Shown here: one piece after another, positions 19,634-24,863 of the stretch | How the letters are laid out: each line of letters opens with the position of its first letter | Numbering within the stretch: position 1 is the first letter of the stretch | Source of the DNA: Candidatus Dojkabacteria bacterium | GTDB lineage: Bacteria; Patescibacteriota; Dojkabacteria; J137 | Direction of reading: 5' to 3' | Length of the DNA: 64,000 bases | Assembly: GCA_025993875.1 (NCBI GenBank) | Contig: JAMQHH010000013.1 | Span: 95,744-159,743, forward strand | Translations under genes and position numbers: made by a program | Notes under the pieces: model-generated | Told to the model about the DNA's origin: nothing | The model's input: only the letters and a program-made list of their open reading frames with translations | The model's database searches: none

Positions 19634-19662
19634 TTGAATGATACACTGTTCTGGGTTATAAT
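19634..19662 (+). promoter_or_regulatory. Sigma70-like promoter upstream of tRNA-Ser(CGA)
   Basis: TTGAAT, 17-nt spacer, TATAAT. About 43 nt upstream of the tRNA 5' end. Confidence 0.4.
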
Positions 19663-19704
19663 GAGACGTAAATTTAAGTGGCTTTTGCTTTTTAAAAAGT
19701 TTAC

Positions 19705-19792
19705 GGAGAGTTGCCAGAGTGGTCGAATGGGCTCGTCTCGAAAACGAGTTTTCCGTAAGGAACCGTAAGTTCGAATCCTATCCTCTCCGCCA
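19705..19792 (+). tRNA. tRNA-Ser (anticodon CGA), class II with long variable arm
   Basis: GGAGAGTTGCCAGAGTGGTCGAATGGGCTCGTCTCGAAAACGAG...GTTCGAATCCTATCCTCTCCGCCA. Anticodon loop CTCGAAA. Confidence 0.85.
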
Positions 19793-19857
19793 GTTAGGAA
19801 ATGTCTTTATTGGATTAAAGTTTATTTTGGGCCAAAAGCGGGCTTTCCTCATTATTA

Positions 19858-20670
19858 TTATAATGGGCTTTTAATATTTTTTAATTTCGGATTGGTTACT
19901 TGTGTGTAGAGTTGCGTTGTACGGATATTACTGTGTCCGAGCAACTCCTGCACATAGCGAACATCAGTTCCGTTTTCCAGCAAATGCGTGGCAAAAGAAT
20001 GTCTAAGTGAATGAAAAGTTGCATCTTTTTTTACGCCCGAATCTCTCAACGCATTTTCAAAAACTTTCTGTGCTGTTCGTGTTGTCAACTTTCCGCCCCT
20101 TTCACTTGCAAAAACAAAATCGTTTCCTGCCTTCCCAGCAACTAAATTCTTCAAACTATCGGCCAAACTTTCGGGCACTACGCTTATTCGGTCTTTTTGG
20201 TCTTTTGCCTGTTTAATATGCACGGTTAATTCTTCAAAATCTAAATCTTGTACTTTTAGAGATACAACTTCACTTACCCGTAGTCCTGCTCCATAAGCGA
20301 GCGATATCAGCAGTTTATGCTTTGCATTTTTGAGCGATCCTAAAATTTTCCCGACTTCGCTTCGTGATAAAACAGTAGGTAAGCTCTTTGGTTTTTTAGC
20401 TGATTGAATTTCAATTTTTTGGTAATCTTTTCGCACATTACGGTAGTAAAACTTGATAGCACTCAAAAACAGATTTCTGCTCCCCGGAGAAATGTGTTTT
20501 TTTTCACAATTCAGCAAAAAATTACGAATATCTTCCTGATCAAGTTTTGTAAAATCATCATCTTTAAAAGAAAAATATTCTCGCAAGCCATAAAGGTAGC
20601 TTTTTATAGTTTGGGAGCTGAAATTTTTGATTTTTAGTTCGCGCTTAGTTTTATTAAGCTCTGTTTGCAT
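19858..20670 (-). CDS. Tyrosine recombinase (phage-integrase/Xer family), small form
   Basis: C-terminal catalytic region HSLRHSFATHLLENGTDVRYVQELLGHSNIRTTQLYTQV (R-H-R-Y constellation, nucleophilic Tyr in LYTQV). N-terminal SAM-like core-binding domain. 270 aa. Lies 66 nt from the tRNA-Ser 3' end. Confidence 0.85.
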   Translation of the reverse strand: MQTELNKTKRELKIKNFSSQTIKSYLYGLREYFSFKDDDFTKLDQEDIRNFLLNCEKKHISPGSRNLFLSAIKFYYRNVRKDYQKIEIQSAKKPKSLPTVLSRSEVGKILGSLKNAKHKLLISLAYGAGLRVSEVVSLKVQDLDFEELTVHIKQAKDQKDRISVVPESLADSLKNLVAGKAGNDFVFASERGGKLTTRTAQKVFENALRDSGVKKDATFHSLRHSFATHLLENGTDVRYVQELLGHSNIRTTQLYTQVTNPKLKNIKSPL

Positions 20671-20844
20671 AAATGTTTAAAATTTTTTATTATTAGTATA
20701 GTTTTTATACGATTTAAACTTATCATAATCTCGTATAATATACAAGTTTAGATTTAAATTATGAAAACATATCGCATAAAAACGAGTTATACGACATTTG
20801 AAAAAACAAACAATTTTAAATACTTAGCAATTTAAACTACTAAT

Positions 20845-21222
20845 ATGGGCAGTTTCATAGAAATAAACGACACATTACAAATATCTAAAGAACAAGGTTT
20901 TCCAGAAGTCTTGAATTATGAACAGCATAAAGCAAAGCCATTTACCGCTGATGATTTCAAAGATAAAATTTTTGAGTTCAAAGATAAACCAAAAGTTAGA
21001 ATCTATAAATTACCGCCTGTTCGTAATTTCCTTGTTCAAAATATTGATGGTAAATGGCTTTACTGGGGACTTGTCCATGTCATTGAAGTTGTTCACGACA
21101 ACATTAAGCAGACGACTTCTGGAAAATTCAAAATAATTTACATTTATACTCCCGAAGAAATGAAACATGCCCATAAGATGATAGATAGAAACAAAGATAC
21201 TGATTTTCTAAAAGTAATGTAG
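20845..21222 (+). CDS. Hypothetical protein
   Basis: 125 aa, no recognised motif. Confidence 0.3.
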   Translation: MGSFIEINDTLQISKEQGFPEVLNYEQHKAKPFTADDFKDKIFEFKDKPKVRIYKLPPVRNFLVQNIDGKWLYWGLVHVIEVVHDNIKQTTSGKFKIIYIYTPEEMKHAHKMIDRNKDTDFLKVM

Positions 21223-21491
21223 TTTAAATTGCTAAAATAATAATGAAGTTTGTTTTTTCAAACGCTAAAGGGGACGCTGCGCTTTCGCTTCACTGCGTTA
21301 CGCTCACCCTCGTATAACACAGTATATCTGGTTCGCCCCTCGGCTCGGGGCTCACCCATATTTTGCTCCAACTATTAAAATGATAAAATAAGGATGGAGC
21401 AAAACATCAGATATACTGAAACGTTATGTGTAATCCATTTTTGCCCTTATCTTTAAGAAAGTCTTTTATACTTAACTAATCTTTAATTAGT

Positions 21492-22043
21492 ATGAAAAAG
21501 AAATGTATAATAATTCACGGATGTCCTTCAAATTCCGATGATCCAACTTACAATAAACATTGGATTCCTTGGGCTAAAAAACAACTTATTGCAAATGGAA
21601 TTGAAACGGAAACTCCAATAATGCCTTCTCCTTGGCAACCTGACTATGACAAATTCAAATCAGAATTTGAAAAAATGAATGTTAATGAAAATACTATTTT
21701 GGTAGGTCATAGTTGCGGTTGTGCATTTTTAGTTCGTTGGCTTGGTGAAACTAAAACCAAAATTTTCAAACTTATTCTTGTTGCTCCTTGGAAAGTAAAT
21801 GATGAGGGAGATAGTTTTAGAGAAAAATTTTACACTTATGATATTGATAAAACTATCTCGGATAGAGCAACAAAAATTATTATGTTTACTGCTGATGACG
21901 AAGACCCTGAAGGGAAAGAAAGTTTGAAAATTTTTCACAATGCACTTGGCGGAGAAATTATCGAACTAAAAAGTCGAGGGCATTATACCCAAGGCGATAT
22001 GGGAACTGAGGAGTTTCCTGAATTAGTAAAACAAATTCTGTAA
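21492..22043 (+). CDS. Putative serine hydrolase of the YdeN/RBBP9-like alpha/beta-hydrolase family
   Basis: 183 aa. Nucleophile elbow ILVGHSCGC (GHSxG). Size and layout fit the small YdeN-type esterases. Confidence 0.55.
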   Translation: MKKKCIIIHGCPSNSDDPTYNKHWIPWAKKQLIANGIETETPIMPSPWQPDYDKFKSEFEKMNVNENTILVGHSCGCAFLVRWLGETKTKIFKLILVAPWKVNDEGDSFREKFYTYDIDKTISDRATKIIMFTADDEDPEGKESLKIFHNALGGEIIELKSRGHYTQGDMGTEEFPELVKQIL

Positions 22044-22747
22044 TAAGTTTGGCATCCGTGAATGACGAACTGGGCAAAAATGGACTTCTTCGCTTCGCTC
22101 CGAAAACGATTTATTATAAATTGAATAAATAAGAGAAATACTTATATAATAGAAATAACTGACATCATTATGAAAAATATAATAAAAGCGATAGAAAATT
22201 CATTACAGAACAAGAACTGGTATTCCGCCCTTGTTTTGTCTGTTAGAAGCTGAAAGATAAGCCGGTAAAGTATCCAATCCACAAGGGTCGCCTCTCTCGC
22301 AAGATAACAAATGAGTGCCGCGTAAAAGGCTGTATGGCTTACTTATTCGAAGTTTTTCTCAAAGAACGTTCAAGATTATCCTCAAAATATCAATTACCGG
22401 AAAGTAGCCAAGTGGAAGAAGGAGAGCAATATTTGATAACCGAGTGTCCAAGATAACGTCTACGTTTTATAGCTTTTAATAGCTCAATGCTTTATAATTA
22501 TGATAGTACTACACTTTTAAATAGAAGGTCACAAGTTTTGCAAAATATGATACCAGTATATAGGATGCTGTAACAATCTAAAAAGGAGATTAAAGCAACA
22601 TAACGGAGGGGAAAATGAATCAACAAAAAGATTTATACCATGGGAACTGGTATGTTACAAAGAGGTAGAAGAAAGAGAGGAAGCATACAAAGAGGAAAAG
22701 TTGGTAAAATCGTATAAGGGAGGAAACGCATTAAAAAAGATAATTAA

Positions 22748-22836
22748 AGGAGAGGTACCCAAGTGGTTGAAGGGGCGGGTTTGCTAAACCCGTAGTACAC
22801 GCAAGTGTAGCCGGGGTTCGAATCCCCGTCTCTCCG
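22748..22836 (+). tRNA. tRNA-Ser (anticodon GCU), class II
   Basis: GGAGAGGTACCCAAGTGGTTGAAGGGGCGGGTTTGCTAAACCCG...GGGGTTCGAATCCCCGTCTCTCCG. Anticodon loop TTGCTAA. Long variable arm. Confidence 0.85.
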
Positions 22837-22860
22837 AGCTTTTTGTGCAGAAAACTTAAA

Positions 22861-22932
22861 GCAGATGTAGTTCAATTGGTAGAACGCTTCCTTGCCAAGG
22901 AAGAGGTTGCGAGTTCGAGCCTCGTCATCTGC
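22861..22932 (+). tRNA. tRNA-Gly (anticodon GCC)
   Basis: GCAGATGTAGTTCAATTGGTAGAACGCTTCCTTGCCAAGGAAGAGGTTGCGAGTTCGAGCCTCGTCATCTGCT. Clean cloverleaf. Confidence 0.9.
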
Positions 22933-22954
22933 TAATAATCGTAGATAATATTCT

Positions 22955-23045
22955 GAGTTCATTCAATTGGTAGAACGTCTCGAAGCCATAACATGGCTTC
23001 TCGTGCCGCGGAAGAGGTTGCGAGTTCGAGGCTCGCCTGCCTGCC
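22955..23045 (+). pseudogene. tRNA-Gly-like degenerate copy. D-arm and T-arm are conserved, the anticodon region is replaced by about 30 nt, and the acceptor stem does not pair
   Basis: Shares TTCAATTGGTAGAACG and GGAAGAGGTTGCGAGTTCGAG with the adjacent tRNA-Gly. Between them lies TCTCGAAGCCATAACATGGCTTCTCGTGCCGC. I could not form a 7-bp acceptor stem. Confidence 0.35.
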
Positions 23046-23096
23046 GGAATGAAATGATCGTTGACAACCAAATTCCATTCCCTACTTTTTTTTTCG
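23044..23096 (+). terminator. Rho-independent terminator closing the tRNA cluster
   Basis: Hairpin CCGGAATGAAATG...AATTCCATTCC followed by CTAC and a T9 run. The T-run overlaps the KKK C-terminal codons of the convergent ligase gene. Confidence 0.5.
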
Positions 23097-24863
23097 TAAT
23101 TCGTACATTCTAATTATCTCTTTTACGGTGGTTGGTAGAAGTTTATCTCTCTTCCATTTCTTTAATCGCGGAAATCTTATAGATAGCCCTTTTACAGAAT
23201 TTTCGTCGTCAAATCCCGTTTTTATCCCAATAGCTGCTGTATGGGCAGGACTACGTGTAATTTCGTCGGCAATAATTTCGGCAATAATTTTGGGTTCTAT
23301 CCAGGTATCGGGGTATAACTGCTTATTCACAACAAAAATTTCTGGAATCTCTTTGACTTTAATTTCAAGTTTTCTCATATCGGTCAGCATGGTTTTCATC
23401 TCTTCTTCTTTAAATCCACTTCCTACTTTTCCAATACTGTAATACTTACCGTCATCTTCATTGAAGACGCCAACAAGTAAAGCTCCAAAACCAAACTGTG
23501 CTCTATCTCCTTTACCTCCATAAAACCCCATAACGGCAACATCAATTGTATCTACCATCTCAGCTTTTGCGTTGGCTTTTAATTTTATCCATTTAAAATT
23601 GCGGGTTCCTGGCTCGTAAATACTTTCACTGTCTTTTATAATTATTCCCTCTAACCCAGACTTGATATTTTTTAGGTAATACTCTTCCAGTTCTTCCGCT
23701 GTGGTTATCTCTTTCGTTTCGAGTATCTTTATGTTTTTTAGGTCTCCCTTTAAAATCTCATGTAATTTTTTTAATCGCTCTTTTAATTTAACAGATGTTA
23801 AATCTTCGCCGTTTAAATATAAAATATCGAAACACATTGCACATACTGGAATTGATTCCGCATGACCGGTAATTTCGTGCTTTCTTTTTCTTTTCATTGT
23901 TTCCTGGTATGTTCTATATTTATCCTGTTCAAAATTGAATCCGATAATTTCAGAATCTAAAATAATTGATTCTATATTAAGACTTTTAAGTTCTAAACAG
24001 ATCTCGGGAAATTGCATAGTCATCTCTTCCATATTTCTGGAAAAAATTTTAGCAATCCCGTTTTTAAAATGTAACTGCCCTCTAAGCCCATCCAATTTGG
24101 GTTGGACAATAGGGTTTGGCAGTCTTTCCCAAGACTTTTGTGAATCCAGCTCTCTTTCGACAAGTTTGGACGCAACGGGTGCAAATGGAGTTATTTCCAT
24201 CTTTTGAAATGATGTCAATAATTCCTCTTTGGAAAGAGTTTTTACCTGTTTGGCAATAAAACCAATGTCCGGCCTTTTACCATATGCCTTATCAAAAATC
24301 TCTCGAATAGATTTGTCTCCTGTTACATACCACGAAAACGCATCTAACAATGTTTTATCACTTAAGCCCAACCTTATGTTACCCTCAATAATTCTTGTAA
24401 CAAACTTAGCACTAAGGGAATCCAGCTTTTGTAAAAGTGCAATATATAGATTAATTTTTTGTTCTACCGATCCTTTGCCAGTACAATTTGCGATCTCTTC
24501 TAATTTTGAAAACACATCCCTTATGGTTAAATCCGCAGAGATGTTTTCCTTTATCAATTCCTCTGCAACAAGCCCGCAATCGCCCTTCTCCAGATAAAGC
24601 TTTTCAACTATGTTTTTTTCACCCGACAAAGGGTTTAAAAAGTCCAGGCGTAAGCTTAATGATCTTAGAATAAGCTTTTTAGAAAAATTAAACTCCAGTG
24701 GAACAAAAAGTGGAGCCAGTCTTCCTGTTAAAAGATATACGGCTTTCTCTATCTCATCTGAGTCGAGCTTTTTAATAAGCTCGGTCATTAGATAAGTCAT
24801 TTCTAACCTTTTAGGTGTGTTTTCTATTTTTTGCAAAAATTGGGCGAATTCGAAAAATTTCAT
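23082..24863 (-). CDS. ATP-dependent DNA ligase (Lig1/LigB-like)
   Basis: Adenylation motif I KLDGLRGQ (KxDGxR). OB and adenylation domain layout. 593 aa. Confidence 0.85.
   Translation of the reverse strand: MKFFEFAQFLQKIENTPKRLEMTYLMTELIKKLDSDEIEKAVYLLTGRLAPLFVPLEFNFSKKLILRSLSLRLDFLNPLSGEKNIVEKLYLEKGDCGLVAEELIKENISADLTIRDVFSKLEEIANCTGKGSVEQKINLYIALLQKLDSLSAKFVTRIIEGNIRLGLSDKTLLDAFSWYVTGDKSIREIFDKAYGKRPDIGFIAKQVKTLSKEELLTSFQKMEITPFAPVASKLVERELDSQKSWERLPNPIVQPKLDGLRGQLHFKNGIAKIFSRNMEEMTMQFPEICLELKSLNIESIILDSEIIGFNFEQDKYRTYQETMKRKRKHEITGHAESIPVCAMCFDILYLNGEDLTSVKLKERLKKLHEILKGDLKNIKILETKEITTAEELEEYYLKNIKSGLEGIIIKDSESIYEPGTRNFKWIKLKANAKAEMVDTIDVAVMGFYGGKGDRAQFGFGALLVGVFNEDDGKYYSIGKVGSGFKEEEMKTMLTDMRKLEIKVKEIPEIFVVNKQLYPDTWIEPKIIAEIIADEITRSPAHTAAIGIKTGFDDENSVKGLSIRFPRLKKWKRDKLLPTTVKEIIRMYELRKKK

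Follow-up and report, generated by a model that had tools for sequence, protein, structure and literature searches.

A tyrosine recombinase gene, two further genes and a tract of decayed sequence lie between two tRNA loci in a 64,000-nucleotide stretch of DNA from a Candidatus Dojkabacteria bacterium (GenBank assembly GCA_025993875.1, contig JAMQHH010000013.1), hereafter called the window. Positions 19793 to ~22110 of this window are probably an integron-like gene-capture platform in a chromosome of the Patescibacteria (candidate phyla radiation, CPR), composed of the recombinase gene, an insertion site resembling the attI site of integrons and single-gene cassettes closed by imperfect palindromes that resemble attC sites. 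As a small array in partial decay, the segment belongs to a cassette-capture system that is widespread in the CPR; the system is integron-like in its working, and its integrase, which lacks the IntI-specific domain, keeps it outside the integrons proper. This reading is carried by the architecture of the sites and its covariation, by the permutation logic of the cassettes, by the bias of the hairpin sites towards one side and strand, and by strain-level gain and replacement of cassettes at G|TT, the bar marking the crossover. No published description of such a system was found in open-access literature and preprints, and full-text searches of those sources for integrons linked to CPR/Patescibacteria returned nothing relevant.

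Comparison of close relatives places the variation of the segment at cassette boundaries. Fourteen public contigs encode exactly this recombinase protein; L001, L004 and L005 are identical to the window, and in L002, L003 and L101 a 643-nt cassette encoding a HAD-like protein is inserted at the attI-like site, between the recombinase gene and ORF125, the open reading frame (ORF) of the first cassette. At this site the window reads ...AAAACGAGTTAT|ACGACATTTG, the HAD insertion reads ...AAAACGAGTTAT|GCGC...GATGTTAT|ACGAC, and the full arrangement in L002 is ...AAAACGAGTTAT|GCGCAATTC...[129-aa HAD-like ORF]...GTATAAC-A-AGGGATAAAAG...CTTTTATCCCT-GAT-GTTAT|ACGACATTTG; these junction sequences indicate that the inserted unit comprises one gene and an imperfect palindrome, with the same GTTAT bounding it. 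Further alleles of the array were retrieved by look-ups with the exact protein of the hydrolase encoded by the second cassette. In L099, a ~939-nt short-chain dehydrogenase (SDR) cassette with its own attC-like site (62.9 bits) is inserted at the G21423|T21424 junction, the insertion point being placed within the shared 8-mer 21419-21426, and in L098 a 1972-nt insert carrying an Mrr-type nuclease gene and a 245-aa ORF stands in place of the whole ORF125 cassette, from the attI G|TT onward. The order hydrolase, tail, tRNAs and ligase is unchanged in the spanning contigs L094 and L095 (also recorded as L105 and L108) and L097, and because this distal part is constant, variation is confined to recombinase-proximal positions, as it is in integrons; an alternative arrangement on the ligase side was looked for and none was found. 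Among the relatives, whose contigs are short, none lacking the whole segment was seen, only cassette-wise variants. A reading made earlier from the sequence alone had taken the segment for a candidate integrated element and named, as the opposing scenario, a conserved syntenic chromosomal Xer locus without repeats; instead, cassette content differs even among 99%-identical strains.

The attI-like site was characterized across a family set, a scan of genome collections yielding 80 loci with recombinase relatives of 59-87% identity from many CPR lineages and one Altiarchaeales bin. A conserved core is present in 63 of 81 arrays, at a median distance of 118 nt (79-159) upstream of the recombinase ATG. 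Its consensus, TTCGYATAAWAAC[G/C]AG|TTRNNNGAAAT, places ATTCGYATAA (left arm) and TTRNNNGAAAT (right arm) on either side of the centre WAAC[G/C]AG, and the family sequences diverge completely after the GTT of the core. In arrays with the site, an accessory arm copy, TTCGTATAAYATACAA, lies at about -55 to -41 from the crossover, and the hairpin model pairs this accessory box with the right arm. The core of the window, TATCGCATAA-AAACGAG-TTATACGACA, consists of two inverted arms that match at 8 of 10 positions, and the site is unique in the 64 kb. When a matrix of the right arm (R') was run over the arrays, it found 90 further copies in forward orientation as against 7 in reverse, with 8 and 5, respectively, in shuffled controls. 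Contig ends cluster here: nine genome contigs stop no more than 6 nt from the crossover G, and 21 of 63 stop within 250 nt of it, the mark of population heterogeneity breaking the assemblies. TAYAAT occurs inside the accessory box in 32 of the 63 sites; a sigma-70 scan at this box reported no cassette-directed promoter, and no Rfam family matches the attI region. An independent metagenome set (loci L109-L188) was picked solely by the exact attI 19-mer TTCGTATAAAAACGAGTTA, which occurs in more than 120 metagenome stretches.

The sites that close the cassettes are long hairpins with a common design. The sequence-only reading had pointed to GC-rich inverted-repeat sequence after ORF125, and such repeats do occupy 21260-21440, in a genome of ~33% GC, with a stable fold on both strands; the palindrome within them, TCGTATAAC-A-CAGTATATCTGG ... 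TCAGATATACTG-AAAC-G|TTATGTG, folds as single-stranded DNA (21306-21435) with z = -4.3 for the top strand and z = -5.5 for the bottom strand, and no Rfam family matches it. All curated sites share one fold: an outer arm leads into an R stem that terminates in AAC/GTT, and a spacer loop separates this stem from a 12-bp L stem, above which lies a variable top. The spacer loop contains a single unpaired 5' A in 99 of 100 sites, facing AAAC, ATAC or GAAC (3-5 nt), and the asymmetry of the sites lies in this 1-nt versus 3-5-nt spacer rather than in L-box bulges. The variable top holds two hairpins separated by a conserved CACCCAAATT-like motif (84/100), AAC stands at its expected position in 92 of the 100 sites, and GTT does so in 85.

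A covariance model built from 19 curated sites, with matches counted at E<=1e-3, gave 100 matches in 889 kb of genome loci, every one of them upstream of the recombinase and on the cassette strand; in the metagenome set, 53 of 57 matches fell on the predicted side and strand in a side-by-side reading by eye. Within the window, 21306-21435 is the only intact hairpin site, with none elsewhere in the 64 kb, and the model finds no match in 22044-22748. In the curated alignment, which was chosen for the fold, 96.6% of cells are paired, compared with 76% after shuffling (0 of 500 shuffles reach the observed value) and 28-39% when the partners are slid, and fourteen pairs change on both sides; for the 100 matches, aligned by fitting to the model, pairing of the L stem reaches 94%, with changes on both sides in 11 of its 12 pairs.

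Hairpins that are intergenic, GC-rich relative to the genome, stable on both strands and furnished with a common inner motif could also be dispersed repeats of the repetitive extragenic palindrome (REP) or miniature inverted-repeat transposable element (MITE) kind, or terminators, unconnected with site-specific recombination. This explanation is largely refuted, and we regard it as very unlikely, given that the matches keep to one side and one strand in the proportions just given, that the window contains no other hairpin, that the cassette polymorphisms begin and end at the hairpin G|TT, and that pairing between an R'' box and the start of the same cassette spans the intervening gene, which no terminator or MITE model predicts.

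This last relationship was traced in 92 units, each running from one R' arm to the next. In 21 of them, at least 11 of the first 13 nt of the cassette, read as reverse complement, agree with its own R'' box, compared with 0 matches of the box to the start of the next cassette and 2 to that of a random cassette; because R'' matches its own start and not the next, the units are circular permutations cut at G|TT, and the junctions between them are hybrid sites. The variable R-stem columns are 35-47% unpaired in genomic context and 0% unpaired when the site is closed with its own cassette start, and AAC/GTT is 94-99% paired in genomic context. In the window, the start of cassette 1, GTTATACGA, is complementary to its own R'' box, TCGTATAAC, and the array of L016 reads R'-ORF-R''-(~100 nt)-R'-ORF-R''... 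through at least nine units.

An inverted repeat of 44 nt that brackets ORF125, absent from the sequence-only reading, is an outward extension of the R stem. Its two copies (20797-20840 and 21219-21262) enclose an ORF beside a tyrosine recombinase and could thus be the inversion substrate of the neighbouring enzyme, forming an invertible switch; we give this explanation almost no credence, since no contig with ORF125 reversed was found, the repeat extends the cassette's own R stem, and analogous arms occur in the Mrr cassette and in the hydrolase cassette, where 21434-21446 pairs with 22072-22084. Between the 3' arm and the R'' box, both the window (21263-21309) and L098 (3612-3660) contain a GC-rich insert of 47-50 nt that starts with CGCTAAAG. 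A similar insert is present in L002, in reverse complement, around 2090-2150, and similar loops of the CGCTTCGCTCGC type fill the ~150-nt ORF-less mini-cassettes of L023 and L034.

Cassette content and orientation are likewise regular. Of the cassettes delimited by attI and attC matches, 89 contain an ORF of 50 aa or more, and in all but one of these (88/89) the longest is directed away from the recombinase; sizes are mostly 0.4-2 kb, and ORF-less units of ~150 nt are also present. Ten sampled cassette products, namely a metallo-beta-lactamase fold protein, a methyltransferase, a NUDIX protein, a racemase, a DHFR-like protein, a deformylase, a GNAT protein, an isochorismatase, a deaminase and an HD domain protein, show that the sampled genes encode ordinary accessory enzymes. 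Between species, the arrays share almost only their hairpin sites, together with ~70%-identical hydrolase genes and a few others; homologs of the window's hydrolase, whose earlier assignment to the YdeN type is confirmed by PF06821 at 21492-22043, lie at 70% identity within the arrays of L064 and L043, with an intact attC-like site after the gene in L064.

ORF125, previously described as an orphan, is present as an ORF but is no orphan, since CPR bacteria and DPANN archaea contain at least 2100 homologs, 78-100% identical. A role as a partner gene of the system was considered and rejected, as ORF125 is absent from the 80 genome loci and has a core-like context in Nanoarchaeota. Among the homolog loci (L086-L092), the one in a Nanoarchaeota contig stands near ribosomal protein genes and not in a cassette array, and near the homolog in a Woesearchaeota-type contig only a weak match to the hairpin model was obtained (20.7 bits).

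The description of a complete small tyrosine recombinase (19858-20670) proved accurate. The gene is intact, starts 66 nt past the 3' end of tRNA-Ser(CGA), and encodes a protein with a PF00589 match of 151 bits and a SAM-like N domain, in which the catalytic motif HxxR...H...Y is legible (AGLRVSE, HSLRHSFATH, GHS, LYT). The top NCBIfam model is the integron integrase TIGR02249, with 219 bits in two stretches, below its cut-off of 265, followed by archaeal XerA with 218 bits at a cut-off of 220; both rank above XerC/D, and among solved structures XerA is the best match (156 bits). In alignment with VchIntIA, residues 12-178 correspond to 13-182 and residues 198-270 to 245-317, and between these blocks the protein has 19 residues (179-197) where VchIntIA has 62 (183-244), so that ~43 aa of the IntI-specific insertion are absent; the listed homologs, too, are mostly ~270 aa long. 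The recombinase is 59-89% identical between very distant CPR classes, its closest relatives are labelled Patescibacteria/CPR in public records, no relatives were found in viral contigs, and it is the only tyrosine recombinase within the window. Judged by these sequence features, the enzyme is a short, simple recombinase of the Xer/IntI type without an arm-binding domain, and not a phage-type integrase. The IntI-specific domain has been treated as defining and necessary for integron integrases (PMC9668308; PMC4792948), and the insertion is held to be needed for the recombination of folded attC (Messier and Roy 2001, as cited in PMC9668308). One locus outside the bacteria, L063 on an Altiarchaeales IMC4 contig, combines a 59%-identical recombinase with the same attI-like core and may reflect either cross-domain transfer or a binning artefact.

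Such an enzyme might instead be the dimer resolvase of the CPR, and this is a serious alternative, although in our estimate an improbable one. The Xer-related recombinases of candidate phyla were placed by Smyshlyaev et al. in a group, 'Cand', that was assumed to replace Xer (PMC8138268); the attI-like core would then be a dif site, as in XerS/difSL, and the cassettes would be miniature elements akin to integrative mobile elements exploiting Xer (IMEX), entering via folded hairpins in the manner of CTX phage. The core of two inverted ~10-nt arms and a 7-nt centre, extremely conserved between lineages, agrees with this explanation, as do the position of archaeal XerA as best structural relative, with a family score close to its cut-off, and the frequent occurrence of sites without an adjacent recombinase gene, as expected of dif. 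However, GC skew is negative from 6 to 50 kb of the window and the flanking genes on both sides lie on the minus strand; with 44 kb of uniform skew and uniform gene orientation and no skew switch, the attI-like site of this window is not at the replication terminus. Moreover, the platform adjoins different tRNAs in different lineages, the high recombinase identity across distant CPR classes suggests horizontal movement, unlike a housekeeping locus, and genes that share one orientation, apparently lack promoters and form arrays with as many as 8 hairpin sites follow the integron pattern and not that of IMEX. A dual role of the enzyme, in both cassette capture and dimer resolution, is possible.

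The association with tRNA genes, to which the sequence-only reading had drawn attention, is a family-wide trait, a tRNA converging on the recombinase stop in 23 of 60 related loci scanned. The converging tRNAs include Ser (four anticodons), Leu, Ala and Trp, and the junction often reads ...CCA|GTTAGRAAATG; directly after the CCA of tRNA-Ser genes with three anticodons, GTTAGRAAATGTCTTTGTTGG is found in L006, L009, L016 and L017, with variants in L013, L024 and L028. As an R' arm, the GTTAGGAAAT that follows tRNA-Ser(CGA) was rejected (arm-matrix score -0.7). Identity between the window and both L002 and L098 stops in the last ~9-10 nt of tRNA-Ser(CGA), at about 19783-19784, and in these two loci (L002, 2060-2110; L098, 700-760), whose platforms are ~99% identical, the flank is a decayed tRNA-like 3' end and not tRNA-Ser(CGA). 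Because the flank differs, the platform itself may move to tRNA 3' ends, and the whole platform may target such ends.

The same data bear on the earlier proposal of a genomic island remnant, in which an element entered tRNA-Ser(CGA) by means of its integrase, carried cargo and then decayed. The position of the recombinase next to the tRNA 3' end, the convergent arrangement in the related loci, the end of identity within the last ~10 nt of the tRNA and the decayed tRNA-like ends in L002 and L098, and the pseudogenes at the distal end all fit such a history. Part of the proposal stands, in that the DNA is recombinase-associated, horizontally acquired, variable and decayed at its distal end; what does not stand is the notion of random cargo, as the contents are cassettes with hairpin sites. 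The att repeats expected near 20700 and 22950-23045 were not found there: the distal boundary lacks a direct repeat of the tRNA-Ser(CGA) 3' end, the sole candidate being D10 (81% over 21 nt), which involves a complete, different tRNA-Ser and was dismissed as att because it reflects the natural similarity of two complete tRNA-Ser isoacceptor genes. The duplication of tRNA-Gly, also advanced as a signature of an element, concerns a copy outside the array that nothing ties to the element. Additionally, the recombinase belongs to the simple Xer/IntI group without an arm-binding domain and has no relative in viral contigs, linkage on the ligase side is constant, and the variation consists of single-cassette events at internal G|TT positions and not of presence or absence of the whole segment. 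An island remnant thus appears unlikely, more so than the resolvase explanation.

According to the mechanism that we propose for this platform, the recombinase would act on the double-stranded attI-like core, with its two inverted ~10-nt arms, 7-nt centre and accessory arm copy, and also on the ~90-240-nt imperfect palindromes that close each cassette. The latter would most likely be recognized as folded single-stranded hairpins, with an R stem that terminates in AAC/GTT, an asymmetric 1x4-nt loop, a 12-bp L stem and a variable three-way top. Strand exchange would take place at G|TT, so that recombination between two attC-like sites excises a cassette circle and circles enter attI or another attC-like site; at the junction of a circular cassette, the L'-AAAC-G end would be joined to the cassette's own TTATACGAC start. 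Promoter-less single genes would thereby accumulate, pointing away from the recombinase and probably read from a promoter in the attI region. In the window, two cassettes (ORF125 and the YdeN-type hydrolase) would have been captured in this way, the distal one having lost its site and being followed by pseudogenes. The recombinase as catalyst, the folded single-stranded substrate, the strand that reacts and the promoter are all predictions from sequence.

Several observations weigh against a gene-capture platform of the integron kind. The recombinase lacks the ~43 aa of the IntI-specific insertion, and because of this absence hairpin recognition, if real, must work differently. Full canonical cores are uncommon, only 24 and 23 of the 100 sites fitting RYYYAAC and GTTRRRY, respectively. 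Both strands fold, and G-T and A-C mismatches (29 vs 28) favour neither strand. The pairing percentages lean towards structure because the alignments were selected for the fold or fitted to it. The array of the window is tiny, and its distal cassette is defective. Finally, a recombinase gene lies within 400 nt of only 12 of the 49 metagenome attI-like sites that have at least 1 kb of sequence on the recombinase side; as the other 37 have no gene within that distance, recombinase gene and attI-like site are separable. Most of these recombinase-less sites retain accessory-box-like sequence, as seen by eye, and still have hairpins on the cassette side, an arrangement analogous to the clusters of attC sites lacking an integrase (CALINs). 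At L113 (2970-3657) and L158 (113-205), hairpin matches occur past the expected recombinase position in the same orientation as the array, and because they extend beyond that position, the attI-like site there appears to be internal to a longer array.

Set beside known systems, the platform resembles integrons in most of its organization. Array and recombinase gene diverge from each other, with the insertion site immediately upstream of the latter, and new cassettes enter at the first position; the crossover is G|TT with invariant AAC/GTT triplets; each cassette combines one apparently promoter-less gene with an imperfect palindrome that has R boxes, L boxes and a variable top, the L boxes preserving a structure and not a sequence; a cassette begins with the complement of its own R'' box; cassettes share one orientation and vary strongly in content between strains; and both ORF-less cassettes and recombinase-less arrays occur. 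Unlike integrons, the system has a recombinase of 270 aa without ~43 aa of the IntI-specific domain, longer sites (median 116, up to 241 nt) with the conserved inner motif CACCCAAATT, an R stem that extends outward by up to ~55 nt and so carries a long 5' arm to the front of the gene, what appears to be an asymmetric 1x4 loop in place of the canonical spacer with its extrahelical bases, a fit to GTTRRRY in only about a quarter of sites, and a CPR host in which the platform often adjoins a tRNA 3' end.

With XerA/dif, XerS/difSL and XerH/difH it shares a short, simple tyrosine recombinase, XerA being the best structural match, and, with single-recombinase Xer systems in general, a core of two inverted arms and a 6-8-nt centre; the XerS site is adjacent to its gene, as at the window locus. 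As with IMEX and CTX phage, foreign DNA integrates at the site, possibly via a folded single strand. It differs from Xer and IMEX systems in that the window site is not at a skew switch, in stringing many single-gene units into ordered arrays with a hairpin site for every unit, and in the varying location of the platform among tRNA genes. The tRNA islands of the P4 type likewise have a recombinase gene adjoining a tRNA 3' end, a sequence break in the last ~10 nt of the tRNA, variable cargo and pseudogenes, whereas the platform has no arm-binding domain, shows no flanking direct repeat that could be found, and varies cassette by cassette at internal sites. We tentatively entertain, as a possibility clearly short of even odds, that the system either preserves the ancestral state of the integron or reinvented it independently, and that in it a plain Xer-type enzyme joins a dif-like double-stranded site with folded hairpins, may double as dimer resolvase, and serves a platform that may home to tRNA 3' ends; it would then be a living intermediate between Xer/dif-IMEX and integrons.

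The layout of the segment is summarized in the table. The three tRNA genes named in the sequence-only reading, tRNA-Ser(CGA), tRNA-Ser(GCU) and tRNA-Gly(GCC), are all called by ARAGORN and Rfam, and the ~700 bp said to contain no intact ORF correspond to 22044-22748, which indeed has none and holds a frameshifted ORF and a GIY-YIG pseudogene. This pseudogene (22500-22790) has two in-frame stops and extends into the 5' part of tRNA-Ser(GCU); in L047 and L010, sequences that match it weakly by tblastx adjoin tRNAs. The motif ACATAAC at ~22601 was dropped as a candidate R'' box of the hydrolase cassette, as it sits within the QHN motif of the pseudogene. The degenerate second copy of tRNA-Gly (~22951-23040) noticed earlier is recovered through the repeats D1 (91%) and D6 (81%), with no ARAGORN call and no Rfam match at E<=10; a perfect palindrome, GAAGCCAT-AAC-ATGGCTTC, takes the place of its anticodon arm, its 5' acceptor strand is lost, and it is not part of the cassette system. 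The tRNA cluster is flanked by a full-length ATP-dependent DNA ligase gene (N, adenylation and C domains) at 23082-24863, and contigs carrying this ligase mostly end ~200-310 nt past its stop, within the tRNA-Gly / pseudo-tRNA-Gly repeat.

Table. Features of the recombinase-associated segment and its flanks, in window coordinates.
Feature	Position	Strand	Details
tRNA-Ser(CGA)	19705-19792	+	ARAGORN + Rfam; 3' end converges on recombinase stop; outer boundary of platform
Conserved terminal spacer of platform	19793-19857	+	starts GTTAGGAAATGTCTTT immediately past tRNA CCA
Xer/IntI-type tyrosine recombinase, 270 aa (predicted)	19858-20670	-	Pfam PF00589, PF13495, PF02899
attI-like site, whole	20731-20797	+	accessory box plus core
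Accessory box of attI-like site	20731-20745	+	TCGTATAATATACAA; third arm-motif copy; includes TATAAT
attI-like core	20770-20797	+	left arm TATCGCATAA, centre AAACGAG, right arm TTATACGACAT; crossover G20786|T20787
Cassette 1, 637 nt	20787-21423	+	5' arm, ORF125, 3' arm, GC-rich insert, attC-like site; G|TT at both ends
Inverted repeat, 44 nt	20797-20840 / 21219-21262		exactly brackets ORF125
ORF125, cassette gene, 125 aa	20845-21222	+	no Pfam/NCBIfam match; CPR/DPANN family
attC-like hairpin site, 130 nt	21306-21435	+	hairpin model R1, 74.5 bits (one of the model's training sequences)
Parts of attC-like site, 5' side and top	R'' 21310-21318; A 21319; L'' 21320-21331; variable 21332-21406		variable part holds CACCCATATT
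Parts of attC-like site, 3' side	L' 21407-21418; AAAC 21419-21422; G21423|TT
Cassette 2	21424-22110	+	5' arm 21434-21446 TCCATTTTTGCCC; YdeN-type hydrolase; 3' arm 22072-22084 GGGCAAAAATGGA
YdeN-type serine hydrolase	21492-22043	+	PF06821 Ser_hydrolase
Truncated attC remnant of cassette 2	22085-~22110	+	R'' and L boxes gone
Frameshifted ORF remnant	~22170-22456	+	no family match
GIY-YIG nuclease pseudogene	22500-22748	+	PF01541 43.7 bits on conceptual translation; in-frame TAA + TGA; runs into tRNA-Ser(GCU)
tRNA-Ser(GCU)	22749-22836	+	ARAGORN + Rfam; distal stable chromosomal flank
tRNA-Gly(GCC)	22860-22934	+	ARAGORN + Rfam; distal stable chromosomal flank
Degenerate tRNA-Gly copy	~22951-23040	+	repeats D1 91% / D6 81% identical to tRNA-Gly; outside array

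If this reading is correct, the extra IntI domain would be dispensable for the capture of cassettes with hairpin sites, although integrons are defined by that domain, and the origin of integrons from Xer-type recombinases would gain a concrete handle. In practical terms, CPR proteins labelled 'XerD' in public records may need re-annotation, the breaks of CPR assemblies at this locus would be explained, and the covariance model is usable for finding cassettes. For the organisms themselves, the platform would reveal a main route of gene gain in the ultra-small, reduced genomes of the CPR.

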